A stretch of 64,000 bases of DNA, taken from the NCBI GenBank assembly GCA_016721765.1, contig JADKHO010000004.1:288088-352087 (forward strand), read 5' to 3'. Numbering within the stretch: the first letter of the stretch is position 1; the number at the start of each line of letters is the position of its first letter. Under the pieces are notes generated by a model, which was given only the letters and a program-made list of their open reading frames with translations, was not told where the DNA came from and ran no database searches. Origin of the DNA: Bacteroidota bacterium (GTDB lineage: Bacteria; Bacteroidota; Bacteroidia; UBA4408). This document shows, piece after piece, positions 12,224-45,124 of this stretch. The translations under genes were made by a program, and so were the position numbers.

Positions 12224-12258
12224 ATCCAAAAAAAACAAAACCCCGCTATTAGCGGGGT
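12224..12258 (-). terminator. Terminator downstream of tRNA-Ser (minus strand)
   Basis: Perfect hairpin ccccgct-att-agcgggg, followed on the minus strand by a T-run (A-run on plus). Confidence 0.55.
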
Positions 12259-12270
12259 TACTTGTTAGAG

Positions 12271-12355
12271 CGGAGAAAGAGGGATTCGAACCCCCGGAGG
12301 TATGACCCTCAACAGTTTTCAAGACTGCCGCAATCGACCACTCTGCCATTTCTCC
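12271..12355 (-). tRNA. tRNA-Ser (anticodon TGA)
   Basis: The reverse complement folds as GGAGAAA acceptor stem, GCAGAGTGGTCGA D-arm, CAGT-CTTGAAA-ACTG anticodon arm (TGA), a long variable arm and a GGTTCGAATCC T-loop. Confidence 0.85.
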
Positions 12356-12460: not shown

Positions 12461-13954
12461 ATGAAAAAATATTTTTTTAAGAGCTTACTTTTTTCCCTTT
12501 TTTCGACCTGTGTGATGGCCCAAAACAGCATTGAAGCTTACCTTTCTTATGCTGATTTTACCACTTCCGATAATAAACCTTATCTCGAAACCCATTTAAC
12601 GGTTATCGGAAACAGCATCAATTATCAAAAAAATGAAACCGGAAAATATCAAGCAACCATACTTGTCTCCATAGCTTTTGTGCAAAATGAAAGCATTAAG
12701 AATTTTAAAAAATACAATTTATTGAGCAGTGAGTTTGATAGCAGTAATGGCAACAAACCGAATTTCATTGATCAGCAGCGCTTCTCATTAGAGAATGGGG
12801 AATATGAAATGGAACTTGAAATTTCCGATAAGAATTCAACTCAAGCTCCCTTTAAACACAAAGAAAAAATAAACATTCGATACGATCAGGAAACTGTTCG
12901 GTTTTCAGAAATTGAATTAATTGAATCTGCCACTCCCACCCAAACTCAAAACATATTGAGTAAAAGTGGTTATGATTTAGTTCCCTATGTTTCTAAATAT
13001 TACCCTGCCAATTACAATGTGCTTAATTTCTACGCAGAGCTATATAATATGAATGTGGCCATGAAAGAAAAAGAGAAATTTTTGCTTAGCTATTTTATAC
13101 AAGATTTTGATAGCCACGAAAAATTGAATAATTATTCCAACTTCACTAAAGAAGATGCCTCAGCAGTATCAAGCATCTTAAAGAGTTTTAACATCGAAAA
13201 TTTACCCACCGGAAATTACAATTTATGCTTGGAGGCAAGAGATAGAGAAAATAATTTGTTAGCCGAGCGTAAGTTGTTTTTTCAACGCAATAACCCGCTC
13301 AAAGAAGAGTCGGCTATTCCCGATTTATCTCAAATTGATTTAGAACAAACTTTTTTAAAAAATTACACCAATAAGGATACATTGATTTTGATGTTACTTA
13401 ACCTTCGCCCCATCTCATCGCTGTCCGAAAGAAACTATGCCACGAATCAAATTAAGGCCGGCGATACCGAAATTATGAAAAAGTTTTTTTACTCCTTTTG
13501 GCAAACACGAAATGCAGCTCATCCTTATGAAGAATGGTTGAGATATAAGGAGAAAGTGGATGAGGTAAACCAACTCTTCAGCACCAATAACCGTGATAAA
13601 AATGGATTTAATTCGGATAGAGGAAGAGTGTATTTAAAGTATGGTAAGCCTGATGTTCGTAGTGTTAACGAGCATGAACCCTCCTCCTATCCTTACGAAA
13701 TTTGGCAGTATAATCGCCTTGCATCAGGGCAAACCAACCGTCGCTTTATATTTTATAGTCCCTATGTTGGAACAAATGATTACCGCCTCATCCATTCGGA
13801 TGCACGAGGTGAAGTTTTTGATAGTCGCTGGAGGTATAAAATTGATGAACGCAGTTCACTTCCGGCTACGCAAAAGTATAACCTCGATAATGAGAATATT
13901 AACCGCAACGATTTTGGCCGACAGGTAGATGACTTGTATCGTAACCCGCGTTAA
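12461..13954 (+). CDS. GWxTD domain-containing secreted protein
   Basis: Signal peptide plus a C-terminal region resembling the GWxTD signature (GFNSDRGRVYLKYGKPD..YEIWQY). Confidence 0.55.
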   Translation: MKKYFFKSLLFSLFSTCVMAQNSIEAYLSYADFTTSDNKPYLETHLTVIGNSINYQKNETGKYQATILVSIAFVQNESIKNFKKYNLLSSEFDSSNGNKPNFIDQQRFSLENGEYEMELEISDKNSTQAPFKHKEKINIRYDQETVRFSEIELIESATPTQTQNILSKSGYDLVPYVSKYYPANYNVLNFYAELYNMNVAMKEKEKFLLSYFIQDFDSHEKLNNYSNFTKEDASAVSSILKSFNIENLPTGNYNLCLEARDRENNLLAERKLFFQRNNPLKEESAIPDLSQIDLEQTFLKNYTNKDTLILMLLNLRPISSLSERNYATNQIKAGDTEIMKKFFYSFWQTRNAAHPYEEWLRYKEKVDEVNQLFSTNNRDKNGFNSDRGRVYLKYGKPDVRSVNEHEPSSYPYEIWQYNRLASGQTNRRFIFYSPYVGTNDYRLIHSDARGEVFDSRWRYKIDERSSLPATQKYNLDNENINRNDFGRQVDDLYRNPR

Positions 13955-13989
13955 TTCTAAGCGATAATACTTTCCTCCCCAATAATTTT

Positions 13990-15021
13990 ATGATTAAAAC
14001 AGCTGTTGTTATTTTAAATTGGAACGGCAGAAATTTTCTTGAAAAATTTTTGCCTTCGGTAACACGTTATTCAAAAGGGGACGCAAGTATTTTCATTATA
14101 GATAATGCCTCAAGCGACGACTCTATTTCATTTGTTAAAACGCATTACCCCGAAATTACAATCCTCAAAAATGCACACAATGGTGGTTTTTCCAAAGGCT
14201 ATAATGAAGGATTAAAAAAAATTGATGCCCAGTATTTTGTGCTCTTAAATTCGGATGTGGAGGTGACTGAAAATTGGATAGCCCCTATTGTTCAACTGCT
14301 TGATGAACAACCTGAAATTGCAGCTTGTCAACCTAAAATTAAATCATTTCATCAAAAAAACCAGTTTGAATATGCAGGCGCTGCCGGTGGTTTTTTAGAT
14401 AAGCATTATTATCCTTTTTGCAGGGGTCGTATTTTTGATTCGGTAGAAGAAGACAATGGCCAATACGACAACACTCGTGAGGTGTTTTGGGCTTCTGGCG
14501 CCTGTCTTTTTGTGCGTGCCGATTTATATTCAAAATTAGGCGGATTAGATGAAGATTTTTTTGCCCACATGGAAGAAATAGATTTGTGCTGGCGTTTAAA
14601 AAATACCGGTTATAAAATTATGGCAAGCCACCTTAGCACAGTTTATCATGTTGGTGGAGGAACACTATCAAAAATAAATCCACGCAAAACCTTTCTAAAT
14701 TTTAGAAACAACTTGTTTATCATTACCAAAAACTGTGAACGCAAAAAGCTATTCCCAATGCTATTTAAGCGAATGGTATTGGATGGAATTGCAGCCGGTA
14801 AATTTTTATTCTCAGGAAGTCCATCGCACGCATTTGCTGTTTTAAGAGCCCATTTTAGCTTTTATGCACAGTTTAATGGCATGTACAAAAAACGTAAGTT
14901 AGTTACCCCAATACCTTACACAAGTACTTCAACGCAATACAAAAAAAGCATTATCTGGGACTACTACGTGCGCCAACACAAGCATTTCTCGGAAATTGAT
15001 TCTCGAAATTTTCTCATTTAA
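13990..15021 (+). CDS. Glycosyltransferase family 2
   Basis: N-terminal AVVILNWNG..FLEKFL and DNASSDDS motifs, with a DxD-type core. Confidence 0.85.
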   Translation: MIKTAVVILNWNGRNFLEKFLPSVTRYSKGDASIFIIDNASSDDSISFVKTHYPEITILKNAHNGGFSKGYNEGLKKIDAQYFVLLNSDVEVTENWIAPIVQLLDEQPEIAACQPKIKSFHQKNQFEYAGAAGGFLDKHYYPFCRGRIFDSVEEDNGQYDNTREVFWASGACLFVRADLYSKLGGLDEDFFAHMEEIDLCWRLKNTGYKIMASHLSTVYHVGGGTLSKINPRKTFLNFRNNLFIITKNCERKKLFPMLFKRMVLDGIAAGKFLFSGSPSHAFAVLRAHFSFYAQFNGMYKKRKLVTPIPYTSTSTQYKKSIIWDYYVRQHKHFSEIDSRNFLI

Positions 15022-15107
15022 GCTGTAGAATTTAATCGATATATTAATTTTTCTATATTTACTATTTTATAATTTTTTAAGCAATTGATAAACAGTCATA
15101 CAGGAAC

Positions 15108-16181
15108 GTGCAGTTAAAAGTGCCAATACGAAATTATATCACGCTATTAAAGTTAATTCGGGCCTGTGTCCTTATGCTCTTATGTGTGCCTACTTTTTTG
15201 GTAAATGCACAAAGTGCTGATGTGCTAAAAGCAGATGAATTGTTTGCGCAAAAAAAATACCGTGAAGCTGCAGAAGCTTATCGTTTGTTACTTACACGCG
15301 AAAATGAATATCAGCTGAGTTCAAAAATTGGGAATTGCTATTTGATTTTAGAAGAATATGCGCAAGCAGAGAACTATTATGAAAAAGTGATGCGTTACGG
15401 TCAGCGCAAAGAAATCGAGATTTTCAATTATGCCGAATGCCTAAAGAAAAATTTAAAATTTACCGATGCAAAACGTTGGTACAACGAAGCAGTATTAAAG
15501 GACCCAAAGGATAAAAATGCAAAACGAATGGCAAATTCCTGCCAAATGTTTTTAGACAATATGAAAAGTGGCGCATGCAGTATAATTAGTGCCAATAAGA
15601 ATTGCTTTACCCTTGATGCCTCTTTTTCGGTTGATAATGCAGTCCCTGATTTAGTTTACCAATGGGAATTCGATAACGGCGAAAAACTAGAAGGCCAAGT
15701 TGTAAATTATTGTTTTCCGGGTGCAGGCAAACGACAAATAAAATTAAACACCTACGATAAAACAAAAAATTATTCCTTAAAAACAGATACGGTGCTCTAT
15801 CTTACAATTGATGGAATTCCTATTAGCTTTAAAAATTCTGAGAGCCCTCAAATTAACGACTTAATTAATTTTGATGCTTCCAATTCACTTATTGATGGAG
15901 CTACTATTACCGACTATTTTTGGGATTTTGGAGATGGCAATCTTAGTTTGGGAAAACTAACCGAACATTCATTTAAAGCCAGCGGTACTTATACTATTAA
16001 GCTCACGGTAACTGCACAGTCAATTGATGGTAAGCAAGACATCATTTATTGTGGTTACAAGCGTATTACCGTGGAAGGCGAAAGTTACCAAGAAAAAAGT
16101 TTGTTGGATGTATTAAAGGAAGAAGCAGTTGAACGTGAGAAAGAGAAAAAAACAAAGCCTACAAAAAATCAAAAACGTTAA
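15108..16181 (+). CDS. TPR plus PKD domain secreted protein (true start probably at the Met at 15174)
   Basis: TPR-like N-terminal half and two PKD-like segments (YQWEFDNGE...; FWDFGDGN..GTYTIKLTV). An internal Met begins the likely signal peptide MLLCVPTFLVNAQS. Confidence 0.6.
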   Translation: MQLKVPIRNYITLLKLIRACVLMLLCVPTFLVNAQSADVLKADELFAQKKYREAAEAYRLLLTRENEYQLSSKIGNCYLILEEYAQAENYYEKVMRYGQRKEIEIFNYAECLKKNLKFTDAKRWYNEAVLKDPKDKNAKRMANSCQMFLDNMKSGACSIISANKNCFTLDASFSVDNAVPDLVYQWEFDNGEKLEGQVVNYCFPGAGKRQIKLNTYDKTKNYSLKTDTVLYLTIDGIPISFKNSESPQINDLINFDASNSLIDGATITDYFWDFGDGNLSLGKLTEHSFKASGTYTIKLTVTAQSIDGKQDIIYCGYKRITVEGESYQEKSLLDVLKEEAVEREKEKKTKPTKNQKR

Positions 16182-16193
16182 GTTTTTTACCGT

Positions 16194-17171
16194 ATGATGT
16201 GTATCCGAAAAATAATTTTCCTCTTTTCTTTTTTTACGTTAAGCGTTGTGAATGCTTACGCTCAAGAGGTACCTACAAGAGGAGAAAACCTTAAATGCCT
16301 AATTACATTTGGCAAAAATGGCGACCCTTCATGGGGAGATGACGATTTCAGCCAAACCTTCTTTTTCGTAATTCCGGTGATTCAAAAAATGCCCGTTTAT
16401 ATTCGGGTGTATGATCCTGATGTGTTTGGCGATTTTGATGAATTTAACGGAGAGCCGGATACGAAAGTAAAATTCTCAGTGTATGGCGGAAAAGAAGCTT
16501 ACAGCAACTTGGATGCACGTGCACTTTCACCCAAAGGCAATTACCAAAGTGGCGTAATGTTGGCTTCAAAAGTATTTGGAAATGAGAAAGAATACAATTT
16601 AAAATGGTACACCTTTGGCCCTTTTAATCCCACCGAAGGAGAACTTAGTAATGAACTTGGAGGCTACGTGTTTAAAGTAATTGCTGAAGGTTTAAATGGC
16701 AATGACGGAAACAATTATAAGTACTTTTTAAGTTCAAAGATGAACGATAATAATCCAATTGAAGGCGGAAATGCATTTACGTATGAGTACTCCTTTCGCT
16801 TGCAAGATGAAGTTGGTTCGGTGGCACACATTTATCCGTTTGCGGATAACAATGTAGCGTCCATTAACATCAATAATTTTGATTTTGATAACGATGGATT
16901 TATTAAAATATATTCCATTAAAAAAAACGGTCACGACATTGCCTTTTCCGGGAATAATGTGTGGGCCAAGAGCAATGTAATTATCAGCGAAGCCGAAAAA
17001 AACAAATCGCTGGATGTGCAATTAGTGAAATCGGGAAACGCAATAAACGATATGGTTTTTTATGTAACCAATCAATACAATGTACCGGTACCCTTTTTTA
17101 CCGTGCCTTTGGGAGGAGTCCCAAAATACCAGTATTCCATAAAAATTACGCCTAATGGAGCGCAAAAATAA
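16194..17171 (+). CDS. Secreted hypothetical protein
   Basis: Signal peptide (FLFSFFTLSVVNAYAQ) and no recognisable domain. Overlaps the next gene by 17 nt. Confidence 0.45.
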   Translation: MMCIRKIIFLFSFFTLSVVNAYAQEVPTRGENLKCLITFGKNGDPSWGDDDFSQTFFFVIPVIQKMPVYIRVYDPDVFGDFDEFNGEPDTKVKFSVYGGKEAYSNLDARALSPKGNYQSGVMLASKVFGNEKEYNLKWYTFGPFNPTEGELSNELGGYVFKVIAEGLNGNDGNNYKYFLSSKMNDNNPIEGGNAFTYEYSFRLQDEVGSVAHIYPFADNNVASININNFDFDNDGFIKIYSIKKNGHDIAFSGNNVWAKSNVIISEAEKNKSLDVQLVKSGNAINDMVFYVTNQYNVPVPFFTVPLGGVPKYQYSIKITPNGAQK

Positions 17172-20100
17172 ATTCAGTTACCTGCTGATATTCATTCTTG
17201 TTCCGCTTATTGTTTCTGCTCAAAAATATAGTTTTAAAAACTTTTCCATTGAGCAAGGCTTGCCTCAAGCTTATGTATATAGTATGTTTCAAAATCCGGA
17301 AGGATTCATCACAGTAAGCACAGGGAAAGGTAACGCCCTATTTAACGGTGCTACTTTTAAACCCATTGCAATTCCCAATTTAGCTGCCGAAGATTTTGTA
17401 ACTGCTTCCTTTATTGATCAAGCGGGAAATATATGGTACGGTTGCTTTTCAGGAAATATTTACGCATGTGCCGGAAACAAAGAAACCAAGCTGGTGTATA
17501 AAGCCAGTAGTTTAATTACTCATTTTTGTGAAAACAAGAGCGGGGCGCTGCTAGCTACAACGCGCAGCAACGGATTGCTCCTACTCGATAATACAAAATT
17601 TTCGTGTCAAGAAATTTGTGCAGATTGTAAGGCATACATGCTCAACTCCGCCGAATTTGTAAACCGGCATTTGCTCCTTTTGGGAAGTTCAAATGGATTG
17701 CTGCTTTATTCCTTAACCGATAAAAAGATAATCCCGGCACCACAATTAAACGACTACGAAATTAATTGCATCACACAAGGCTCAATGCAAAATTTATTTT
17801 GGATTGGGACAAAAGAAAAAGGTGTTTTTGAAATTTCGATTGACGAAAATTTAAATTTTAAACTGCTGCACAACATTGCTGTTGAAGAGGGTTTATCGAG
17901 TAATAATGTGCAAAGTATTCTGCTCGATAATTCAAAAAATTTGTGGGTGGGAACGGTTGAAGGGGGTATAAATAAAATTGCTACCAATCAAAATTACAAA
18001 GTGCGCTTTTTTAATGAAGCAGCCGGATTAACTTCAGATTTTGTAAAATCTAGCTTGATTGATAATGAAGGCAACCTTTGGCTGGGAACTTACGGTGGTG
18101 GTCTTTTTCGTTTAGATATTGATCCTTTTGAATTAATTAATGTAAAAGATGGTTTACGCGACAATAACATAACTGCAATTGAATCGGATGCAGCAGGCAA
18201 CTTTTGGTTTGGCACAAATCAAGGCATTACTCAACTGAATTTTGAAAAAAATCAGAGCAAGCAAATTACAGTGGATAAGGGTTTGGTGAGCGATAAAATA
18301 ACGGCACTCTATTTAGATAAAGCAGCACACCGTCTATGGGTTGGAACGGCCGATAAAGGAATATGCACCCTAGAATTAGAGAATGGTAAAATAAATAATT
18401 TTAATCATCAACCTCCACTCGAAGGCGATTACATAAATGCTATCGGGAGCGATAAATTGGGAAACATTTGGATTAGTACAACACTTTCCGGAGCATATAA
18501 ATTCGATGGTGAATTTACCCAATATTCCACAAAAAATGGCTTAGGACACAATTATGTTTATCAGGCTTTTGGCGACTCTAAAGGAAAAGTTTGGTTTGGA
18601 ACACATGCCGGCTCCTTGAATTATTTTGATAAAGGAAAGGTGCAAGAATATAGTAGTAAACTCGGTATCAGTATTTATGACTTTAATTCCTTTTGTGAAG
18701 ATAAAAATGGCAACATCTGGACTGCAACATTTGGAAATGGTTTTGTTAACATTTCTATTTCACCTAAAGTGGTTATCACCACCAATCAAGGCTTGGTTTC
18801 GAATTATTGTTATGGCATTATTTGCGACCGTGATAACAATCTTTGGGTAACTCAAAAAAATTACCTCGCAAAGTTCAACCCCATTCGTCAAAACCTAAAA
18901 ACCTTTAGCAATAAGGATTTATTTGGCGATAATCAATTTAATATCAATGCCACCCATTTAGATAAGGATGGAAATGTGTGGTTGGGAAGCGTGAAAGGAG
19001 CTGTAAAATATTTGTATTCTATCTACAATACCAATAAAACAGAAGCCAAACCAAGTATTACGCATTTCCGCGTATTTAATGAAAACAAAGATCTTACAAC
19101 TTACTTAACCTTACCCTATAGCAGCTATTCCGTTTCGTTTGAATTTGAAGCTTTGAGTTTCAAAAAATCAGAAGAAGTATTATACAAATACATGCTTGCC
19201 GGGCGCGACAACGACTGGTGTATGGCCACCTCCATTAAGTTTGTAAACTATGCAAATTTAGCAGATGGTGAGTATACTTTTAAATTGCTGGCGTGCAACA
19301 ACGATGGATTATGGAACACCGAACCGGTTACCATTTCATTTACAATTAATCCACCCCTTTGGAAAAGTTGGTGGTTTTGGACTGTGTTGTTACTTATTTT
19401 AATAGCCACTGTTGCCATATACGTAAATATTCGCGCCAAACAACTAAAACGCCAGCGCGATGAATTACAGCGCATGGTGGATAATAAAACAAAAGAGCTT
19501 AGCCAAGAAAAAAGCTTAGTGGAATCCCAAAATAAAATTATTCGTGCTAAGAATAAGGATATACAAGACAGTATCAATTATGCTCAAAAAATTCAGGATG
19601 CCATTTTACCGGATATCAATGAGCTACGAAAAAACCTGAGCGATGTATTTATTTTATATCAACCGCGCGAAGTAGTAAGCGGCGATTTTTATTGGTACAC
19701 GCAAGTGGATAATTCGATGATAATGGTGGCTGCCGATTGCACCGGACATGGAGTTCCGGGTGCTTTGATGAGCATGATTGGGAATGCATTGCTACGTGAA
19801 ATTATTTTGTTGAATCAAATTTATAGTCCACATAAAATATTGTATGCATTAGATGAAGGAATTATAAGTACCCTCAACCAGGGCGGTGCGGAGAAAGAGC
19901 GCAAAGACGGGATGGCCATTTCAATTTGTAAAATTATTGCCGATAAAAAACAAATTTCATTTGCGAGTTCACAACAATCCTTAATTCATATTGGTAAAAA
20001 TGGAGCGCGCGAAATTAAGGGTGAATTTTTCTCTATTGGAGATTATGAAGTAACTGATAAAAAATTTGAGAATCATCTTATTCCGTATGAGTCGGAAGAT

Positions 20101-20310
20101 ATGATTTACCTTTTTTCGGATGGGTATCTTGATCAATTTGGTGGCGCGGAAAACCGAAAGTTTATGAAAAAACGCTTTATCGATTTATTGCTCGAAATAT
20201 GCCATTTAGAAGGAAGTTTTCAAAAAGCTGCACTCGAAAAAAATCTTGCTGCCTGGAAAGGCGAGAAAAACCAAACAGATGATGTGATGGTGATTGGGAT
20301 TAGGTTGTAG
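17155..20310 (+). CDS. Transmembrane sensor: two-component-regulator propeller repeats, Y_Y_Y domain, TM helix and a C-terminal PP2C/SpoIIE phosphatase
   Basis: Nine or more Reg_prop-like repeats (NLWVGT.., NFWFGT.., KVWFGT..), a Y_Y_Y motif (YKYMLAGRDNDW..GEYTFKL), a TM helix (WWFWTVLLLILIATVAIYV), a coiled coil and a PP2C-type domain (VVSGDFYW..ADCTGHGVPGALMSM..DDVMVIGIRL). Confidence 0.8.
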   Translation: MERKNKFSYLLIFILVPLIVSAQKYSFKNFSIEQGLPQAYVYSMFQNPEGFITVSTGKGNALFNGATFKPIAIPNLAAEDFVTASFIDQAGNIWYGCFSGNIYACAGNKETKLVYKASSLITHFCENKSGALLATTRSNGLLLLDNTKFSCQEICADCKAYMLNSAEFVNRHLLLLGSSNGLLLYSLTDKKIIPAPQLNDYEINCITQGSMQNLFWIGTKEKGVFEISIDENLNFKLLHNIAVEEGLSSNNVQSILLDNSKNLWVGTVEGGINKIATNQNYKVRFFNEAAGLTSDFVKSSLIDNEGNLWLGTYGGGLFRLDIDPFELINVKDGLRDNNITAIESDAAGNFWFGTNQGITQLNFEKNQSKQITVDKGLVSDKITALYLDKAAHRLWVGTADKGICTLELENGKINNFNHQPPLEGDYINAIGSDKLGNIWISTTLSGAYKFDGEFTQYSTKNGLGHNYVYQAFGDSKGKVWFGTHAGSLNYFDKGKVQEYSSKLGISIYDFNSFCEDKNGNIWTATFGNGFVNISISPKVVITTNQGLVSNYCYGIICDRDNNLWVTQKNYLAKFNPIRQNLKTFSNKDLFGDNQFNINATHLDKDGNVWLGSVKGAVKYLYSIYNTNKTEAKPSITHFRVFNENKDLTTYLTLPYSSYSVSFEFEALSFKKSEEVLYKYMLAGRDNDWCMATSIKFVNYANLADGEYTFKLLACNNDGLWNTEPVTISFTINPPLWKSWWFWTVLLLILIATVAIYVNIRAKQLKRQRDELQRMVDNKTKELSQEKSLVESQNKIIRAKNKDIQDSINYAQKIQDAILPDINELRKNLSDVFILYQPREVVSGDFYWYTQVDNSMIMVAADCTGHGVPGALMSMIGNALLREIILLNQIYSPHKILYALDEGIISTLNQGGAEKERKDGMAISICKIIADKKQISFASSQQSLIHIGKNGAREIKGEFFSIGDYEVTDKKFENHLIPYESEDMIYLFSDGYLDQFGGAENRKFMKKRFIDLLLEICHLEGSFQKAALEKNLAAWKGEKNQTDDVMVIGIRL

Positions 20311-20349
20311 AGCTGATTAGCCGATTAGCTGAATAGCTGATTAGCGGAT
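20311..20349. repeat. Tandem octamer repeat (GATTAGCY)x~4.5 starting at the first nucleotide after the stop codon at 20308-20310
   Basis: Direct reading: agct gattagcc gattagct gaatagct gattagcg gattt. Same family as 773-810. Confidence 0.8.
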
Positions 20350-20487
20350 TTATTGGGAATCTATGCGAACCTATTCCATCTATGTTGCTATGTGTTTATA
20401 AAAGTCAGCTTATGAAATTATATTTTGATTAATAGAACGCAGATTTATTATGATGATTATGATGAATATGATTTTCCGGGAACTGAA

Positions 20488-20907
20488 TTAAATCTTTAAA
20501 AAACTTTCGAGCGCTAATCTATATCCATCCAAACCCAAACCAACAATACAGCCTTTTGCATTGGGAGAAATAAAGGAGGTATGCCTAAAACTTTCGCGGG
20601 CAAAAATATTTGAGATATGCACCTCAATCACCGGCGATTGAATTGCTTTCACAGCATCCCCAATAGCAACAGAAGTGTGCGTGTAGCCACCTGCATTTAA
20701 AATGATTCCATTTGCTGAAAAGCCCACCTCCTGTATTCTATTTATCAACTCGCCTTCTACATTGCTCTGAAAATAATCAATTTGATGTGTCGAAAAGTTG
20801 TTTCGCAATTCCGTTAAATAACTTTCAAAGCTCTGTGTTCCATAAATAGTTTGTTCGCGAGTGCCTAATAAATTTAAGTTAGGACCGTTGATGATGACAA
20901 AATGCAT
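20488..20907 (-). CDS. aroQ: Type II 3-dehydroquinate dehydratase
   Basis: Carries INGPNLNLLGTRE..NAGGYTHTS..HISNI. The ORF track extends 16 codons upstream, but the conserved start is MHFVIINGPN at 20907. Confidence 0.9.
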   Translation of the reverse strand: MHFVIINGPNLNLLGTREQTIYGTQSFESYLTELRNNFSTHQIDYFQSNVEGELINRIQEVGFSANGIILNAGGYTHTSVAIGDAVKAIQSPVIEVHISNIFARESFRHTSFISPNAKGCIVGLGLDGYRLALESFLKI

Positions 20908-21001
20908 AGCTTTGAGTTTTGGATAATTTAGACAATAATAAAAAAGAAATCTCATTTTCTCCCTTTTTCACTGCTAAAGTGACTAAAGTTTAGCACGTAT
21001 C

Positions 21002-21910
21002 ATGAACTGGAAAATTTATATCAAAGGTTACTCCTCTTATCTGAAATTGGAACGCTCACTTTCCGAAAATTCGATTGAAGCCTATGAGCACGATGTGGAA
21101 AAATTTGTTCAGTTCTTGGAATTTAAAAAAATGGAGTTATCACCCAAACAAGTTGAGCTGAGCCATTTGCGTGAATTTTTGATTTGGACCAATGAATTGG
21201 GAATGAGTGCACGCACGCAAGCTAGGGTAATTTCAGGCATAAAATCGTTTTATAAATACTTGTTGGTTGAAAATATTTTGGATTCCGACCCAACCACTTT
21301 ACTAGAAGCACCCCGATTGGGCAGAAAGCTACCGGAAGTGCTTAGCATTGAAGAAATAAATGCACTCATTGATGGAATTGATTTAAGCAAAAATGAAGGT
21401 ACACGCAACAAAGCCATGCTCGAAACCCTTTACAGCTCAGGATTGCGGGTAAGTGAATTGGTAAATCTTAAAATTTCGACCGTTTTTCCAAGGGAAGGAT
21501 TTTTAAAAGTGATTGGAAAAGGAAATAAGGAACGCATTGTTCCCATTGGTAAGGTTGCCTTAAAGCAAATCGATATTTATCTCACGAAAGTGAGAAGCAA
21601 AGTAACACCGGCCAAAGAAGACGGAGACACACTGTTTTTAAATAACCGCGGTAAAAAACTCACACGTGTGATGGTTTTTACCATAATTAAACGTCTTGCC
21701 ATCCAAATTAATTTGGGCAAAAATATAAGTCCGCATACATTCCGCCACTCGTTTGCAACCCATTTAATTGATGGAGGAGCCGATTTGAGGGCGGTGCAAG
21801 ATATGCTCGGCCATGAAAGTATTACTACTACCGAAATTTATACCCATCTAGACCGAGAATATTTACGCGATGCAATTATGCAATTTCACCCTAGAGCTAA
21901 AATGCATTGA
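21002..21910 (+). CDS. xerD: Site-specific tyrosine recombinase XerD
   Basis: Has the catalytic RxxxHxxR..Y arrangement (HTFRHSFATHL..LGHESITTTEIYTHL). Shows the chromosomal aroQ-xerD synteny and no flanking phage genes. Confidence 0.85.
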   Translation: MNWKIYIKGYSSYLKLERSLSENSIEAYEHDVEKFVQFLEFKKMELSPKQVELSHLREFLIWTNELGMSARTQARVISGIKSFYKYLLVENILDSDPTTLLEAPRLGRKLPEVLSIEEINALIDGIDLSKNEGTRNKAMLETLYSSGLRVSELVNLKISTVFPREGFLKVIGKGNKERIVPIGKVALKQIDIYLTKVRSKVTPAKEDGDTLFLNNRGKKLTRVMVFTIIKRLAIQINLGKNISPHTFRHSFATHLIDGGADLRAVQDMLGHESITTTEIYTHLDREYLRDAIMQFHPRAKMH

Positions 21911-21982
21911 ACGCCAAAACAAGCGCGATGCAGCACTTCATTTCCACAACAAATTTTAACTTTAATATTTCACTCATTTTCT

Positions 21983-21990
21983 TATCTTTG
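21983..21990 (+). promoter_or_regulatory. Candidate -7 element TATCTTTG immediately upstream of bamD (possibly leaderless or short-leader)
   Basis: Matches TAnnTTTG, 4 nt before the ATG at 21995. Confidence 0.25.
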
Positions 21991-21994
21991 CACG

Positions 21995-22816
21995 ATGTTT
22001 AAAAAAGTAGCTCTACTTTTCTTTTCAATTGCCCTAATCACTTTAGCTTCGTGTAACAAATACAATCGCTTGCTGAAGAGTTCTGACTTTGAGTTAAAAT
22101 ACACCAAAGCAGTGGAGTATTATGGCAAAAAAAATTACGTGAAAGCGCTTCCTTTATTTGAAGAGTTGATGACTGTGTATCGCGGTACTGCAAAGGCTGA
22201 ACAAGTGAGCTATTACTACGCGTATTGCAATTTTGGATTGGAAGATTATTTATTGGCCAGTTACCACTTGAAGAATTTTGTAAAAACATTTCCCAACAGT
22301 GAGTATGCCGAAGAAGCACAATTTACCAGTGCTTATTGCTATTATTTAGATTCACCGGTGTATAGTTTAGATCAAGAAAATACCATAAAAGCAATTAACG
22401 AATTTCAGTTGTTTGTGAACATGTATCCCAACAGCGCGCGTATTAAGGATTGCAACGATTATATTGATTTACTGCGTCGCAAATTAGAGCGTAAAGCCTA
22501 TGAAAATGCGACTTTATATTTTAACATTGAAGATTATAAAGCATCGATGCAAGCATTTCGAAATTTATTAAAAGATTTTCCGGACAACCCTTATCGGGAA
22601 GAAGCTAATTTTATGATATTAAAGTCTAATTATTTATTAGCTAAAAACAGTATCCCCGAAAAGAAACAAGAACGTTATAAATCTACGATTGAAGTTTATT
22701 ATAAATTCATCGACAACTACAAAGACAGCAAATACCTGCAAGAAGCAGAAATTATTTTTGAGTCTGCGCAAAAACAATTATCAAAAGAATCAAAAGAAAA
22801 ACAAGCCAAATCATAA
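21995..22816 (+). CDS. bamD: Outer membrane protein assembly factor BamD-like TPR lipoprotein
   Basis: Lipoprotein signal (LITLASCNK), TPR-like repeats, and conserved placement before rpoZ-coaBC. Confidence 0.7.
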   Translation: MFKKVALLFFSIALITLASCNKYNRLLKSSDFELKYTKAVEYYGKKNYVKALPLFEELMTVYRGTAKAEQVSYYYAYCNFGLEDYLLASYHLKNFVKTFPNSEYAEEAQFTSAYCYYLDSPVYSLDQENTIKAINEFQLFVNMYPNSARIKDCNDYIDLLRRKLERKAYENATLYFNIEDYKASMQAFRNLLKDFPDNPYREEANFMILKSNYLLAKNSIPEKKQERYKSTIEVYYKFIDNYKDSKYLQEAEIIFESAQKQLSKESKEKQAKS

Positions 22817-22833
22817 ATTAACAAATCCATACA

Positions 22834-23163
22834 ATGAGTTACAAAAAAACAGCAGCCGAATCGTCAACTATCACGCGTGATTTAAGAGACCTGGATCAAA
22901 AAACCGGCAACATTTATGAAACGTTAGCTATCATCGCTAAGCGTGCCAACCAAATCAGCACCGAGATGAAAGAAGAGTTGAACAACAAGTTGAGCGAATT
23001 TGCAACCTCCAGTGATAATTTAGAGGAAGTATTCGAAAACCGTGAACAAATAGAGGTTTCGAAACATTATGAAAAACTTCCTAAACCGGTTTTAATTGCC
23101 ATTCAGGAATATGCTGAGGATAAAATTTATTCTCGCAACCCAAGCAAAGAAGTTCAGCAATAA
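22834..23163 (+). CDS. rpoZ: DNA-directed RNA polymerase subunit omega (Bacteroidota type)
   Basis: 109 aa with an NIYETLAIIAKRANQIS omega-like core. Conserved position between bamD and coaBC. Confidence 0.65.
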   Translation: MSYKKTAAESSTITRDLRDLDQKTGNIYETLAIIAKRANQISTEMKEELNNKLSEFATSSDNLEEVFENREQIEVSKHYEKLPKPVLIAIQEYAEDKIYSRNPSKEVQQ

Positions 23164-23249
23164 TTTTTGCTTTCATTCCATACTCCGGCTGTTATCTTCC
23201 TTTGTATAGGCTGATGGCAGCCGGATTGTTTTCATAACTGCTTGAAACG

Positions 23250-24452
23250 ATGCTTCGAAATAAAAAGATAGTATTACTCGTTACTGCCAGCATAGCTGCT
23301 TATAAAGCTGCTGTTTTAGTGCGACTATTAATAAAAGAAGGAGCGCAAGTAAAAGTGATTTTAACACCCCAAGCAAAAGACTTTATCACACCGCTTACTC
23401 TATCTACATTATCCAAAAACCCTGTTTTATCAGAATTTACCAGGGGAAATTCCGGTGAATGGAACAACCACGTAGAACTTGGCTTATGGGCTGATGTGAT
23501 GTTGGTTGCACCTGCGTCGGCGAATACAATTGCAAAAATGGCTTATGGCTTGTGCGACAATTTAGCACTTGCGGTTTACTTATCGGCCAAATGCCCCGTT
23601 ATTATTGCTCCTGCGATGGATTTAGATATGTATCGACATCCTGCCACGCTAGCCAATTTAAGTACTTTGAAAAAGTATGGAAATCAAATCATTGCAAGCA
23701 ATTACGGTGAATTAGCAAGTGGTTTGGTAGGTGAAGGACGCATGGCAGAGCCCGAAGAAATTCGCGATTTTGTAAGCACTTATTTTTCGAAAAACCTTCC
23801 GCTTGCCGGAAAAACTGCCTTGGTAACCGCCGGACCAACGTATGAAGCCATTGACGCCGTGCGCTTTTTAGGAAATAACAGCAGTGGTAAAATGGGCATT
23901 GCCATAGCCGAAGCTTTAGCCAATCAAGGTGCTCAGGTGCATTTAGTAATTGGACCATCTGCTTTAAAAACAGAAAACCCTTCCATTAAAAGAACAGATG
24001 TAGTTTCGGCGGAAGACATGTGGAAAGCAAGTGAATCACTTTTTAAACAGGCTGATATTGCAGTGCTATCGGCCGCGGTGGCTGATTTTAAACCTAAATC
24101 TGTTCAAACCAAAAAAATAAAAAAAGCAAGTGGATTTAATTCCATTGAACTGGTTGAAACCGTTGATATTTTGGCTTCATTAGGTAAACTCAAAAAGAAA
24201 CATCAAATTTTAGTTGGCTTTGCTTTGGAGACTGACAATGAAATTGAAAATGCTAAACTAAAAATTAAGAAAAAGAACCTCGATTTTATTGTGCTAAACT
24301 CCTTGAATGATAAGGGTGCCGGCTTTAAACACGATACCAATAAAATTACAATAATTGATGCTCAAAATAAAATTCAGAAATTTGAGTTAAAATCGAAGCA
24401 GGAAGTTGCCCAAGATATTGTGACAAAAATTAAAGCCTATTTTAAAAAATAA
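23250..24452 (+). CDS. coaBC: Bifunctional phosphopantothenoylcysteine decarboxylase / phosphopantothenate-cysteine ligase
   Basis: N-terminal flavoprotein domain (KKIVLLVTASIAAYKA) and a C-terminal DFP ligase domain (ALVTAGPTYEAIDAVRFLGNNSSGKMG). Confidence 0.95.
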   Translation: MLRNKKIVLLVTASIAAYKAAVLVRLLIKEGAQVKVILTPQAKDFITPLTLSTLSKNPVLSEFTRGNSGEWNNHVELGLWADVMLVAPASANTIAKMAYGLCDNLALAVYLSAKCPVIIAPAMDLDMYRHPATLANLSTLKKYGNQIIASNYGELASGLVGEGRMAEPEEIRDFVSTYFSKNLPLAGKTALVTAGPTYEAIDAVRFLGNNSSGKMGIAIAEALANQGAQVHLVIGPSALKTENPSIKRTDVVSAEDMWKASESLFKQADIAVLSAAVADFKPKSVQTKKIKKASGFNSIELVETVDILASLGKLKKKHQILVGFALETDNEIENAKLKIKKKNLDFIVLNSLNDKGAGFKHDTNKITIIDAQNKIQKFELKSKQEVAQDIVTKIKAYFKK

Positions 24453-24458
24453 AAACGC

Positions 24459-25373
24459 ATGAAAATCAAGTTGAATAAAATTTCCCTTGTTGTAATTGCC
24501 CTTCTACTTTGCTCCATCACCTCTACTTTTGCCCAAGAATTAAACTGCTCCATAACCGTAAACTCAAGTCAAATTTCGGGGACAGATAAAAAGATTTATG
24601 CTACCATGCAAAAATCGTTTTTTGAATTCATGAACGGAACAAAATGGACCAATGATATTTTTAAAACGGAAGAACGGATTGAATGCAGTATGTTGATTAA
24701 CATTACCGAACGCCCGAGTGTAGATGAGTTTAAAGCAACCATGCAATTGCAAATTCGACGTCCCATTTATAAAACTTCTTATAGCAGTAACTTGCTTAAT
24801 TACATGGACAATGAATTCACTTTTAAATATGTAGAATTTCAACCTATCGAATTTAATGAGAGCACGTATAGCAGTAATTTAAGTTCTATGTTGGCATTTT
24901 ATGCTTATATGATTTTGGGTATTGATTACGATAGTTTTTCGCTATCGGGCGGGCAACCCTATTTTGTGAAAGCTCAAGCAATTACTAATAATGCTCAATC
25001 CTCGAGCGACAAAGGTTGGAAATCGTTTGAAGACAATAAAAACCGCTATTGGTTTATAGAGAACATGATGAATTCGAATTTTAAGCTTATTCGTCACGCA
25101 ATGTATAAATATCACCGCACCGGTTTGGATTTGATGAGTTCGAATTTAGAAGATGGGCGCACCAACATTTTAAATTGTATTGAAGATTTAAAAACAACTT
25201 ATAGTGTGAGCCCTAACTCCTATTTGATGCAGGTATTTTTTAATGCTAAAGCAGATGAGTTGGTAAATATTTTCACCCCCGCTTTTCCCGATCAAAAGGG
25301 AAAAATTGTAACCACCCTTAATTTAATTGACCCCGGAAACTCGAGTAAATACGGGAAAATTATGGGAAATTGA
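24459..25373 (+). CDS. DUF4835-like secreted protein
   Basis: Signal peptide. Occupies the conserved position between coaBC and recN in Flavobacteriia. Confidence 0.55.
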   Translation: MKIKLNKISLVVIALLLCSITSTFAQELNCSITVNSSQISGTDKKIYATMQKSFFEFMNGTKWTNDIFKTEERIECSMLINITERPSVDEFKATMQLQIRRPIYKTSYSSNLLNYMDNEFTFKYVEFQPIEFNESTYSSNLSSMLAFYAYMILGIDYDSFSLSGGQPYFVKAQAITNNAQSSSDKGWKSFEDNKNRYWFIENMMNSNFKLIRHAMYKYHRTGLDLMSSNLEDGRTNILNCIEDLKTTYSVSPNSYLMQVFFNAKADELVNIFTPAFPDQKGKIVTTLNLIDPGNSSKYGKIMGN

Positions 25374-25608
25374 GAAAAGAGTTAATTTTGGTTTCCCAGT
25401 TTCAAGCTACTTAAAATAGAACGCGGATGGCGCGGATTAAAGGATTTACGCGGATTTTTTTAAGCGCTATTAACCCAAACCATTTATTAAAAAAATTCGG
25501 CATGCGTCGGGTTTAAGCCAAAACCTTACTTTACTTTTTTATCATCCAAAAATAATCCACCAGCCTCCAATAATATTTTTGATATTTGAGGGGAAATAAA
25601 TTTGCCTT

Positions 25609-27264
25609 ATGCTTCAGCATTTATCCATTCGCAATTACGCTTTAATTGAAAGCCTTGACATTGATTTGAGTGACGGCTTAACCATTATTACTGGAGAAAC
25701 GGGTGCCGGAAAATCAATTTTATTGGGAGCGCTATCTTTACTTATTGGCAACAGAGCCGATACCGGAACCTTGCGCGATAAAACCAAAAAGTGCATTGTA
25801 GAAGCACAATTTGCGATTGAAAAATATGCCCTTCTCCCCTTCTTCGAAAAATATGAATTGGATTATAATAAGCTAAGTACTATTCGTCGTGAGATAAATC
25901 CTGCAGGCGTTTCCAGAGCTTTTATTAACGATACACCTGTAAATTTAGCGCAATTAAAAGAAATTGGTTTGGCATTGGTAGATGTACATTCTCAGCACCA
26001 AAGCATTGCCTTGAATGAAGCGGAACTTCAAATTTCTTTGGTAGATGTATTTGCACAACACAAAGCTAAATTAAGCAGCTATCAGAGTGATTTCACTGCC
26101 TATAAAAAGTTAAAGCAAAACTTGGCCTTGATGGAAGAACAAGATGCACAAGCTAAGAAAGATTTGGATTATTATCAATTTCAGTTTAACGAATTGGAAG
26201 ATGCGCAGCTTAAAAGTGATGAGCTCAGCAACATGGAGCAAGAATCTGAAACTTTGACCCATGCCGAATCCATAAAAAAAGCACTAAACTCATCGGCATA
26301 CTTGCTTAATCAAAGCGACAGCAATGCCTTGAATGCATTGGCAGAAATAAAAAATTTATTAGCCGGAATCTCAAAATACAATGCCAGTGTTTCAGAAATC
26401 GCTGCACGCATCAATAGTGCTTACATTGAGCTAAAAGATATTTTAAGTGAATTAGAAAGCTTAGAACAAGACATTGTATTTAATCCCGCAAGGCTCGAAG
26501 AAATTGAAAACCGACTGAATTTAATTTATCGCTTACAACAAAAACACCGCGTAAAAAGCATTGCAGAATTAACGCAAATTCAGGATGAATTGTCGGAAAA
26601 GATTTTAGCCATTAATAATCTGGATGAGCTCATTCACAAAGCAAAATTGGAAATTGAAAGATTAGAAAAACAACTTACAAGCAAGGCCGAGGAACTTTCG
26701 AAAAAACGCAAGGCTTCTTCAGCACAAATGGAGAAACAAATTCGCTCGCTATTAAGTGATTTGGGAATGCCCAATGCCAATTTAGCTATACAAATTAATG
26801 CGGCTGCAGAGTTTAACACTTATGGGAAAGATAAAATTCAATTTCTATTCTCGGCCAATAAAGGCAGCGAAATGAAAGAGTTGAGTAAGGTTGCCTCCGG
26901 AGGTGAATTATCGCGCTTGCTGCTCAGTTTAAAATCCTTATTGGCCCAATCGGCAGCTTTGCCCACCATTATTTTTGATGAAATTGATACAGGTGTATCG
27001 GGTGAAGTAGCCAACAAAGTCGGAAACATTCTTGAAAAAATGGCCAATGAAATGCAAGTGATTAGCATCACCCATCTTCCGCAAATCGCCAGTAAAGGCA
27101 AGGAGCATTTGTATGTTTATAAAGACGAGCAGAAGGATAAAACGGTTACTCACATTAAAAAATTAACTAAGCAAGAGCGTGTTCATGAAATTGCGCAAAT
27201 GCTTAGCAGTAGCTCCCCTACTGTTGCTGCAATTAATAATGCTAAGGAGTTGTTGAAGCATTAG
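25609..27264 (+). CDS. recN: DNA repair protein RecN
   Basis: Walker A (GETGAGKSIL) plus an SMC-like coiled coil, with a C-terminal signature and Walker B (LSKVASGGELSRLLLSL..IIFDEIDTGVSG). Confidence 0.95.
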   Translation: MLQHLSIRNYALIESLDIDLSDGLTIITGETGAGKSILLGALSLLIGNRADTGTLRDKTKKCIVEAQFAIEKYALLPFFEKYELDYNKLSTIRREINPAGVSRAFINDTPVNLAQLKEIGLALVDVHSQHQSIALNEAELQISLVDVFAQHKAKLSSYQSDFTAYKKLKQNLALMEEQDAQAKKDLDYYQFQFNELEDAQLKSDELSNMEQESETLTHAESIKKALNSSAYLLNQSDSNALNALAEIKNLLAGISKYNASVSEIAARINSAYIELKDILSELESLEQDIVFNPARLEEIENRLNLIYRLQQKHRVKSIAELTQIQDELSEKILAINNLDELIHKAKLEIERLEKQLTSKAEELSKKRKASSAQMEKQIRSLLSDLGMPNANLAIQINAAAEFNTYGKDKIQFLFSANKGSEMKELSKVASGGELSRLLLSLKSLLAQSAALPTIIFDEIDTGVSGEVANKVGNILEKMANEMQVISITHLPQIASKGKEHLYVYKDEQKDKTVTHIKKLTKQERVHEIAQMLSSSSPTVAAINNAKELLKH

Positions 27265-27409
27265 ATAGAAGCAAAACAATTGCCCTTGCCATGTTTTGAG
27301 TTTTTAAAAGATTATATTAATAACTATTAAAATGATTAGCCTTAAAATGATTCGAGGTAAGCACCCAACATTTATTAAAGCATTTCAAGTTTCTTTCCCC
27401 TAAAAAAAA

Positions 27410-27417
27410 TATATTTG
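27410..27417 (+). promoter_or_regulatory. Candidate -7 element TATATTTG upstream of fabI
   Basis: Matches TAnnTTTG, 24 nt upstream of the ATG at 27441. Confidence 0.3.
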
Positions 27418-27440
27418 TACCTGAACTCAAAACAAGATTT

Positions 27441-28256
27441 ATGAACTACAATTTGCTAAAAGGAAAAAGAGGAATTATTTCAGGAGCCTTGGATAGTAAT
27501 TCCATTGCTTGGAAAGTAGCTGAACGTGCGCATGCCGAAGGTGCTATTTTTACGCTTACCAATGCTCCGGTGGCGATGCGAATGGGTGAAATAAAAAAGT
27601 TGGCGGAAGATTGCAAGGCCGAAGTTATAGGAGCAGATGCTACCTCCATCCCCGATTTAGAAAATCTATTTAGTAAATCGCAAGAAGTATTGGGTGGTAA
27701 AATTGATTTTGTTTTACACTCAATCGGCATGAGCCCCAACTTGCGTAAAAGCTTGCCTTATACCGATTTGAATTACGATTTTTATGCAAAGAGCTTGGAT
27801 GTTTCAGCCATGAGTTTGCATAAAATGATGACTGTTGCTAAAAAACAAGATGCCTTAAACGAATGGGCTTCTGTGGTGGCATTAAGCTATATCGCAGCAC
27901 AGCGCACTTATTCTTTCTATGGTGATATGGCGGATGCAAAAGCGATGCTGGAATCGGTTGCCCGCAGCTTTGGGTATCATTATGGAAAAGCAAAAAAAGT
28001 TCGCATCAATACTGTTTCTCAATCCCCGACTAAAACTACGGCTGGTGGCGGTATTAAAGGCTTTGATAATTTTTATCAGTTTGCCGATAAACTTTCACCT
28101 TTAGGAAATGCAAGCGCTGAAGCTTGCGCAGATTATTGCATTACCTTGTTTTCGGATTTAACACGAATGGTAACCATGCAAAATTTGTTTCACGATGGCG
28201 GGTATTCTACTACAGGAATCAGTGAGGAGTTGATGGCAATGTTTGAAAAAGAGTAA
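27441..28256 (+). CDS. fabI: Enoyl-[acyl-carrier-protein] reductase (FabI-type SDR)
   Basis: 271 aa with a GKRGIISGA..SIAW Rossmann segment and a FVLHSIGMSP...SYIAAQRTY..Y..K FabI-like active-site region. Confidence 0.75.
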   Translation: MNYNLLKGKRGIISGALDSNSIAWKVAERAHAEGAIFTLTNAPVAMRMGEIKKLAEDCKAEVIGADATSIPDLENLFSKSQEVLGGKIDFVLHSIGMSPNLRKSLPYTDLNYDFYAKSLDVSAMSLHKMMTVAKKQDALNEWASVVALSYIAAQRTYSFYGDMADAKAMLESVARSFGYHYGKAKKVRINTVSQSPTKTTAGGGIKGFDNFYQFADKLSPLGNASAEACADYCITLFSDLTRMVTMQNLFHDGGYSTTGISEELMAMFEKE

Positions 28257-28265
28257 TTCGAAATC

Positions 28266-28979
28266 TTGCTTCCCTTAAAAAAAATAGTTTGTTTTTTCTT
28301 TGTTCACGCGCTTGTGTTATCAGCATTTGCGCAAGATGAACAAGAGATGAAACCAATTGTGCCATCCCGTTTTCAGTTTAAAGCCAATGTGGCTATCCCT
28401 AGTTTAGTTGGCAACAAAGCTTTACGTGCCAGCTTTAGAGGTGTTTACGAAGGTACCGCTAATTTGCAACTGCGGTTATTTAACGGTGTTTACTTGGGTG
28501 CACATGGCTCATATACCGGTTTTAAAATATCGCCCGAAAAAATTGCCAATTTAAATTCCGAATGTCGCACCGCGGGAGCCGGACTGAATTTAGGCTACGA
28601 AAAATTTAGTATGCCGCGTGTGATGTGGTATGTAAATTTTGCTTCAGGATACAATTGGATAAATTATTTTAGGGTGCAATGCCCCGATAGTATTGCCCCA
28701 GAGCTCCACCATTTGGCCTGGAGTTACAGACCTAGTGCCGGTTTTTGCTATTATTCCGATGATAATTTCTCACTTGGATTATCGGTTGCCTATACTTTTT
28801 TAATGAATGAATTTGATCCAACAAGCATTTGCTTGGATAAGTTTAAAGCATACAAAAAAGACGATTCAAAAGGATACACGAATTATTTTTCGATTGGAGT
28901 AACGCTTAATTTTAACCTTCGAAAAGATATGTTTAATGGGAATGGAAGCAGTGAGAGTGATGGGGAGGAGGATAATTGA
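28266..28979 (+). CDS. Putative outer-membrane beta-barrel protein with an acidic C-terminal tail
   Basis: Signal peptide, beta-strand-like alternation, and a terminal SESDGEEDN. Confidence 0.4.
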   Translation: MLPLKKIVCFFFVHALVLSAFAQDEQEMKPIVPSRFQFKANVAIPSLVGNKALRASFRGVYEGTANLQLRLFNGVYLGAHGSYTGFKISPEKIANLNSECRTAGAGLNLGYEKFSMPRVMWYVNFASGYNWINYFRVQCPDSIAPELHHLAWSYRPSAGFCYYSDDNFSLGLSVAYTFLMNEFDPTSICLDKFKAYKKDDSKGYTNYFSIGVTLNFNLRKDMFNGNGSSESDGEEDN

Positions 28980-45109: not shown

Positions 45110-45124
45110 TTTTTCGGTCTTTAA

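Follow-up and report, generated by a model that had tools for sequence, protein, structure and literature searches.

Five plus-strand genes, here called G1 to G5, follow each other closely at positions 12461 to 20310 of a 64,000-nucleotide stretch of the Bacteroidota bacterium assembly GCA_016721765.1 (contig JADKHO010000004.1, positions 288,088 to 352,087 of the forward strand; the whole stretch is referred to as the window), and the question raised by this locus is whether they act together. A first-pass annotation had read them as one functional unit, in which cell-envelope or glycan-related proteins are coupled to a signalling protein. Comparison with related loci showed that G1-G2 (module A) and G3-G4-G5 (module B) are each conserved as a module of their own and are neighbours in this lineage alone. 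For module B we lean towards a periplasmic sensing unit, in which the secreted protein G4 would serve as a binding co-sensor for the membrane phosphatase G5. The block and its limits are made up as follows:

12270..12355, minus strand: tRNA-Ser(TGA), upstream limit of the block (ARAGORN; Rfam tRNA, 57.8 bits)
12461..13954, plus strand: G1, secreted GWxTD-domain protein of 497 amino acids, module A (TIGR04514, PF20094)
13990..15021, plus strand: G2, family-2 glycosyltransferase (GT2) of 343 amino acids, module A (PF00535)
15022..15107, no strand: spacer between G2 and G3, 86 nucleotides, AT-rich, junction of the modules (from the sequence)
15108..16181, plus strand: G3, protein of 357 amino acids with TPR and two PKD domains and a GTG start, module B (PF18911)
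16194..17171, plus strand: G4, secreted protein of 325 amino acids from an unnamed family, core of module B (signal peptide)
17155..20310, plus strand: G5, membrane sensor phosphatase of 1051 amino acids, module B (Pfam, NCBIfam and PDB matches)
17155..17171, plus strand: overlap of the G4 stop and the G5 start, 17 nucleotides (from the coordinates)
20488..20955, minus strand: aroQ, type II dehydroquinase, convergent, downstream limit of the block (PF01220, E 3e-54)

The five open reading frames (ORFs) and their domains, including the succession of propellers, Y_Y_Y and PP2C in the 1051-amino-acid membrane sensor, agreed exactly in position with the first-pass annotation. Its description of a cluster of secreted proteins holds for the three that are secreted or periplasmic, but not for the membrane protein G5 or for G2, which has no signal peptide and is therefore cytoplasmic. 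Along the block the genes are spaced by 35, 86 and 12 nucleotides, and the 17-nucleotide overlap of the last pair could possibly reflect translational coupling.

The synteny analysis was based on 164 related loci. Eighty of these, drawn from genomes of five or more Bacteroidota orders, were found with a profile of G4 homologues and searched by tblastn with all window proteins, and the other 84 are loci of G1 homologues, which came from 80 metagenome loci and three gene-context look-ups. The test set beforehand for the proposed unit was that relatives keep the five-gene order, and it failed outside close relatives whose G4 is at least 83% identical. G1 and G2 were linked to G4 in a single one of the 80 G4 genomes, the closest relative (L001; G4 85% identical), while G3-G5 were found near G1 in only two of the 84 G1 loci (L084 and L085), both from the window's own lineage (G4 83-89% identical). 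Because the order is lost beyond these relatives, the claim of one functional unit is not supported; G1-G2 and G3-G5 are each widespread without the other. The coupling of envelope proteins to a signalling protein is supported for G3-G4-G5, though not for the whole set of five.

In 43 of the 68 loci with enough sequence, the gene immediately downstream of the GWxTD gene was a GT2 gene 49-70% identical to G2; about 12 further loci had one gene between the two. In 30 loci aroQ followed the GT2 gene on the opposite strand. One locus (L081) has the order GWxTD-GT2-hypothetical-aroQ-xerD, and in two others (L102 and L140) aroQ and xerD stand immediately behind GT2, in each case without G3-G5. Judged from these sequences, the window is this common GWxTD-GT2-aroQ-xerD arrangement with G3-G4-G5 set between GT2 and aroQ, and the arrangement without G3-G5 is the ancestral-looking one.

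A single operon of all five genes, coupling glycan or envelope synthesis by the GT2 and GWxTD proteins to the sensor phosphatase, would agree with the common strand, the short gaps and the order kept in L001, L084 and L085. The G2-G3 spacer (15022-15107) is also consistent with it, as no clear terminator was found there, folding gave no stable structure (z +0.83 against shuffles), and the exact Bacteroidota -7 promoter motif TAnnTTTG was absent from this as from every other intergenic spacer. All plus-strand terminator-like matches were intragenic, and the promoter scan was uninformative, with 34 sigma-70-like sites seen against 31.6 expected from shuffles. Nevertheless, co-directionality is weak evidence for a unit, because beyond aroQ the same window holds eight plus-strand ORFs (21002-28979) packed as tightly as G1-G5, and these begin with four unrelated housekeeping genes, xerD, bamD, rpoZ and coaBC. 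With the order gone beyond close relatives, each module common without the other and GWxTD-GT2-aroQ-xerD existing without G3-G5, a five-gene operon that acts as one functional unit is quite unlikely, while co-transcription by itself would be compatible with the sequence. Right behind the G5 stop, at 20311-20350, three imperfect copies of GCTGATTAGC are able to form an 8-bp hairpin, which is at best a weak terminator because the G5 3' region folds no better than shuffles (z -1.05). As seen here, tight co-directional clusters can be mosaics of independent modules.

Both proteins of module A belong to recognised families. G1 carries a signal peptide and exceeded the cut-offs of both GWxTD models (TIGR04514, 62.3 bits with a cut-off of 28; PF20094, 32.5 with 26.9), the motif itself reading GFNSDRGR in this protein. 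Its structural model contains Ig-like beta-sandwiches at about residues 26-276 and a helical/beta GWxTD domain at about 305-446, with generic immunoglobulin and carbohydrate-binding module (CBM) matches as the only structural neighbours. The family, of about 490 amino acids, is well conserved (42-47% identity across Bacteroidota), and no paper on GWxTD was found in the literature search. G2 matched PF00535 over residues 6-129, the N-terminal GT-A region (E 1e-18; 68.3 bits, gathering threshold 23.3), which places it among the GT2 enzymes, and no specific NCBIfam equivalog reached its cut-off. As G1 is paired with a cytoplasmic GT2, module A may help to make or handle a glycan of the envelope. 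In a locus of another lineage (L083, 3021-5246), a cytoplasmic TPR-SpoIIE (PP2C) protein is encoded near the GWxTD-GT2 pair, inside a molybdenum-cofactor gene cluster; this second case of a PP2C near module A is probably a coincidence.

For module B, ORFs were called and clustered in the 80 G4 loci and representatives were annotated with Pfam and NCBIfam. A Reg_prop/Y_Y_Y membrane protein was encoded at position +1 of G4 in 63 of the 80 genomes, covering at least five orders. The gap between the two genes was 31 nucleotides or less in 51 of these 63 loci, with overlapping reading frames in 21, and the larger gaps result from ATG-only start calling. A PP2C output, as in the window, was present in 29 of the 63 sensors and HisKA/HATPase_c in ten, one of which, a hybrid kinase, also contains receiver and Hpt domains (Hymenobacter busanensis, L021); six were truncated ORFs or had no recognised output domain, and the remaining 18 are considered below. 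The main argument for a sensing unit comes from this pattern: since the adjacency, often with overlapping frames, persists whatever the output, G4 would be expected to work with the sensor domain. In one locus (L003, 10937-17284) G4 precedes two propeller/Y_Y_Y sensors in tandem, one with a PP2C output (1078 amino acids) and behind it one with a histidine kinase output (1030 amino acids), and one G4 may therefore serve two transducers.

The link of G4 to its upstream neighbour was nearly as frequent. A protein with PKD and/or PD40 domains was found at -1 or -2 of G4 in 51 of the 80 loci, often with PorE-like TPR, PD40 and OmpA domains and with partial matches to NF052230 and NF053607 below their cut-offs. 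In the window this position is taken by G3, which has two PKD domains at about residues 170-305 (PF18911, E 9e-23) and a Lys/Glu-rich tail. Its N-terminal TPR region (about 41-154) gave a partial match to NF052230, the model for PorE in type IX secretion systems (T9SS), covering model positions 4-145 with 44 bits against a cut-off of 600. Unlike PorE of the T9SS, which combines four kinds of domain, G3 has no propeller, carboxypeptidase-regulatory-like (CRD) or OmpA_C domains; the likeness is confined to the TPR region, with PKD domains instead, and it is not classed as a PorE. In L001 the tblastn alignment begins at residue 4 of G3, so the extra N-terminal stretch gained with the GTG start is kept there. 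G3-G4-G5 is thus the window's copy of a separately conserved PKD-G4-sensor triad.

G5 is laid out as periplasmic propellers and Y_Y_Y (about residues 24-735), a membrane helix (about 740-761), a coiled-coil linker and a PP2C/SpoIIE domain (853-1050). The sensor part was identified by Reg_prop (PF07494, E 5e-39) and Y_Y_Y (PF07495, E 2.5e-14), and residues 173-736 are homologous to the glycan-sensing domain of BT4663 (PDB 4a2l, E 1e-58). BT4663 is a Bacteroides hybrid two-component system (HTCS) protein with the same order of Reg_prop propellers, Y_Y_Y and membrane helix. In contrast to it, G5 has a PP2C output, lies outside a polysaccharide utilization locus (PUL) and is preceded by a conserved, dedicated partner gene, G4. 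HisKA, HATPase_c, receiver and AraC helix-turn-helix domains were not detected in G5, and because it lacks kinase, receiver and AraC domains it is not an HTCS. In the window the cluster has no SusC/SusD or CAZyme genes at its flanks, and the 80 loci share no recurrent TonB-dependent receptor cluster, which sets it apart from a PUL.

The PP2C domain reached 48.5 bits in PF07228 (E 1.3e-12; gathering threshold 25), with the metal-binding Asp motifs of the superfamily present. It is homologous to SiaA of Pseudomonas aeruginosa (6k4e, E 4e-37), and in the alignment G5 keeps GDFY, DCTGHGVPGALM, SDGYLDQ and TDD, so that GDFY, DCxGHGVPGALM, DGxLDQ and DD are all intact. Because of these intact motifs G5 is probably an active phosphatase. 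With SiaA of the SiaABCD system and the RsbU/SpoIIE partner-switching phosphatases (6K4E; PMC7647112) it shares a membrane-anchored PP2C behind a coiled-coil linker, but its N-terminal sensor is unrelated, and neither siaB/C/D-like genes nor STAS or kinase genes were seen close by. The NCBIfam SiaA model (NF038263) matched with 187 bits against a cut-off of 700, over the C-terminal 290 or so residues only (760-1050); because of this score and the lack of siaBCD neighbours (the flanks are aroQ, xerD, bamD and others), G5 is not a SiaA equivalog.

G4 is the least familiar member of the triad. It had no match in Pfam or NCBIfam at E≤0.01, and its profile had none among PDB sequences. The family is large, with 3414 matches in a database clustered at 90% and, at E≤1e-3, 703 representative clusters; its domain is a candidate new domain family. 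A confident AlphaFold model (pLDDT 84.7, pTM 0.83) consists of two beta-sandwich domains of the jelly-roll or PPC-like type, and this predicted tandem jelly-roll resembles Ca-dependent collagen-binding/PPC domains and CBMs. The likeness to the PPC/collagen-binding domains of clostridial collagenase (3JQW, 5IKU) is one of fold level only, with about 96 residues aligning at 9% identity, and a sequence match to the PPC/collagen-binding family PF04151 was not found. Over 99 domains from all architectures, D49, D74, D82, D171, N173 and D230 are near-invariant, together with several glycines and W138. Residue patterns of this kind are typically seen in binding sandwiches that depend on Ca2+ or are stabilised by it, and G4, which is presumably periplasmic, may bind Ca2+.

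The wider architectures of the domain were informative as well. C-terminal G4 domains are found at the tips of Big_1/Invasin_D3/TIG stalks or behind a membrane helix and a Pro/Thr-rich linker, and each of the 15 proteins tested whose G4 domain is N-terminal has PKD repeats, from 3 to 15 of them. Genes for G4-PKD fusions lie directly behind FecR-domain genes in two of the three contexts examined. In two clusters, 62% identical to each other and located beside a BlaI-like repressor gene, G4 is fused to a BlaR1/M56 transducer and takes the position of the extracytoplasmic sensor domain; this fusion, whose M56 part is that of the BlaR1/MecR1 transducers (Peptidase_M56), does not occur in the window. 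On account of these architectures and fusions, G4 can be described as a membrane-distal binding module recurrently tied to PKD domains and membrane signal transducers. One fusion protein comes from a Cloacimonetes metagenome-assembled genome, and the domain is therefore not confined to Bacteroidota.

Within stand-alone G4 proteins the C-terminal tail (residues 300-325, PFFxxPxGGxPKYKYKI) is conserved in sequence and predicted to be disordered (pLDDT <50), and in G4-PKD fusions the profile match stops before it. A partner might dock on this tail. A correlation between G4 and sensor distances (r 0.66) was considered as evidence of co-evolution and rejected, as shared phylogeny explains it.

Many related loci place the triad in a T9SS context. 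A PorP/SprF gene was located upstream in 30 of the 80 G4 loci (representative TIGR03519, 225 bits), a gene for a T9SS type-B cargo with its C-terminal domain (CTD; TIGR04131) upstream in 24, and an OmpA-domain gene within three genes of G4 in 30. The fullest cassette reads cargo, PorP-like, PorE-like/PKD, G4 and sensor. Operons of cargo, PorP and PorE-like genes have been described before (PMC9143113, PMC12618676), with the proposal that static type-B cargo is attached to the cell wall by PorE-like proteins; a term search of these two papers found no mention of a sensor, kinase or phosphatase in such operons, and the two genes behind the trio were not found mentioned elsewhere in the literature searched. 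G4 and the sensor come directly behind trios of the kind exemplified by Fjoh_3952-3951-3950 (same papers) in 24-30 of the 80 loci. The CHU_0125 locus of Cytophaga hutchinsonii was considered as a further G4-sensor cassette and is apparently not one, being flanked by small genes.

The window itself contains three genes for T9SS type-A cargo, each with a Por_Secre_tail CTD:

30155-33397, plus strand: CotH, lamin-tail and PKD domains, 1080 amino acids
40180-42585, plus strand: five Fn3 domains, 801 amino acids
57473-58786, plus strand: GH18 chitinase-like, 437 amino acids

The organism therefore has a T9SS.

From these data a mechanism for module B can be proposed. G4, as a soluble periplasmic protein of two jelly-rolls with an invariant Asp/Asn cluster, would bind a conserved envelope ligand or partner, probably together with G3, and would relay this to the propeller/Y_Y_Y domain of G5 in the periplasm. 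In response, the cytoplasmic PP2C of G5, which is of the SiaA/RsbU type, would change its activity towards a phosphoprotein whose gene lies elsewhere. As the triad often ends cargo/PorP/PorE-like operons in other Bacteroidota, what is signalled may be the state of T9SS type-B surface-adhesin anchoring complexes or of an envelope glycan. The contact between G4 and G5, the T9SS-related signal and the direction of signalling are our inferences, and the interaction of the two proteins is deduced from synteny.

Several results weigh against this reading of two modules and a co-sensor. No STAS or kinase (HATPase_c_2) partner for the phosphatase was found among about 25 window ORFs scanned (5 of the cluster, 10 flanking and 10 others), nor does one recur as a neighbour in the related loci. 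An enzyme domain is missing from 18 of the 63 sensors (Cyclobacteriaceae, Marinoscillum, Ekhidna and others), which have three membrane helices at their end instead. In 15 of the 80 loci, mostly of Hymenobacter, no sensor was encoded within three genes of G4, which stands beside a ComEA-like gene. G4 is also far more conserved than the sensor domain, with a mean pairwise identity of 51% versus 28% in the same 49 genomes, and is therefore under constraints beyond its partner, so that an enzymatic or structural role is possible. A fusion of G4 with the sensor (a "Rosetta stone" protein) was absent among the 150 best profile matches, where the long proteins are either G4 with PKD or Ig-stalks with G4, and the M56-G4 fusion is rare, being limited to two clusters. 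Finally, the window has no PorP/SprF or type-B cargo gene in its 64 kb (tblastn with 12 PorP and 12 type-B cargo queries), which separates it from the type-B cargo/PorP/PorE-like operons, and the G2-G3 spacer shows no visible boundary between the modules. Through the high conservation of G4, the Hymenobacter loci with G4 only and the sensors without output, two other explanations of module B stay alive.

According to the first of these, G3-G4-G5 is mainly structural, accessory to the anchoring of T9SS type-B cargo, with the propeller protein as an inner-membrane scaffold to which signalling was added secondarily in some lineages. The frequent position of the triad behind cargo-PorP-PorE-like genes, the PorE-like TPR region of G3, and the propeller proteins without an enzyme domain, six of which have a PorE-like OmpA gene directly behind them, all fit this explanation, and the very high conservation of G4 would suit a structural role with multiple partners. 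However, most G4-adjacent propeller proteins carry a signalling output (PP2C, histidine or hybrid kinase), and their propeller/Y_Y_Y part is homologous to 4a2l, a proven ligand sensor. The window and many other loci moreover have no PorP or type-B cargo genes nearby, and G4 domains occur without visible T9SS context in single-pass proteins with a Pro/Thr linker and in the Cloacimonetes protein. A mainly structural role is accordingly regarded as rather unlikely.

The second explanation takes G5 as an autonomous glycan sensor and G4 as a co-regulated periplasmic glycan-binding protein or enzyme outside signal perception. It draws on the match of the G5 sensor domain to BT4663, on the resemblance of the G4 fold to CBM and PPC jelly-rolls, on the conservation of G4 beyond that of the sensor and on the genomes in which G4 has no adjacent sensor. 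It is improbable in the light of three results: SusC/SusD or CAZyme genes neither flank the cluster in the window nor recur in the 80 loci, the adjacency of G4 and sensor with its frequent start/stop overlap survives four output architectures, and in a BlaR1-type transducer the place of the sensor is taken by a G4 domain.

A co-sensor function of G4 towards G5 consequently remains our preferred reading. A bolder extension of it, held tentatively and with low confidence, is that G4 represents a new and ancient type of extracytoplasmic sensing domain, built as a tandem jelly-roll with invariant Asp/Asn residues (possibly a Ca2+ site), that plugs into transducers of the unrelated Reg_prop/Y_Y_Y, BlaR1/M56 and FecR types. 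In Bacteroidota, together with a PKD/PorE-like protein, it would then form an unrecognised signalling arm of T9SS type-B adhesin operons, reporting the state of the anchoring complexes to the cytoplasm.

Membrane sensors that perceive their signal via a separate periplasmic protein are known, as in LuxP-LuxQ and TorT-TorS. For PorA-PorY of Porphyromonas gingivalis, perception through a separate extracytoplasmic protein is described in PMC12152298. These pairs resemble the proposed G4-G5 pair in that a soluble extracytoplasmic protein is encoded beside the membrane sensor or acts on it. They differ in that G4 is neither a Venus-flytrap binding protein nor a CTD cargo, but a member of an unnamed tandem jelly-roll family.

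G1, G2 and G5 belong to known kinds of proteins, while there appears to be no earlier description of the G4 domain, of the PKD-G4-sensor triad or of the triad's connection with T9SS type-B operons. No description of the G3-G4-G5 triad was found in the literature searched, and a keyword search combining propeller, Y_Y_Y, SpoIIE and T9SS returned nothing relevant. The G4-sensor pair gives a concrete handle both on Reg_prop/Y_Y_Y sensors outside PULs and on the regulation of T9SS type-B adhesin operons. It is a defined protein pair for binding studies, the natural swaps of output domain can be used as reporters, and the substrate of the G5 PP2C can be sought by phosphoproteomics.

Some further observations were made in the related loci and elsewhere in the window. 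In loci with three-helix propeller proteins of the Cyclobacteriaceae type (L037, 10716-11141; L039, L043, L047, L060, L061, L080), a conserved protein of about 141 amino acids without an NCBIfam match comes directly after the propeller protein, and it might be the missing cytoplasmic output partner. Most Hymenobacter loci (L007, L009, L036, L040, L050, L051, L069-L071) have a lone G4 between DinB-like and ComEA-like (HHH_3) genes, with a protein of about 2100 amino acids encoded nearby on the opposite strand; H. busanensis is the only Hymenobacter with a propeller hybrid kinase after G4.

At the upstream limit of the block, a strong terminator-like hairpin accompanies tRNA-Ser(TGA) just before G1 (12239-12355, minus strand), the tRNA being the sole match of the Rfam scan. 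In L084 (1-9532) the region upstream of G1 is different, with genes for a tyrosine integrase, a type I restriction-modification system and GmrSD. The presence of integrase and restriction-modification genes at this place in a close relative suggests that the tRNA-Ser(TGA) site is an integration hotspot. Further downstream in the window (44354-46144, minus strand), a TPR ORF (45125-46144) and an ORF with a class III adenylate/guanylate cyclase catalytic domain (44354-44878) lie 246 nucleotides apart and may be one TPR-cyclase gene, either split by ATG-only ORF calling or frameshifted.

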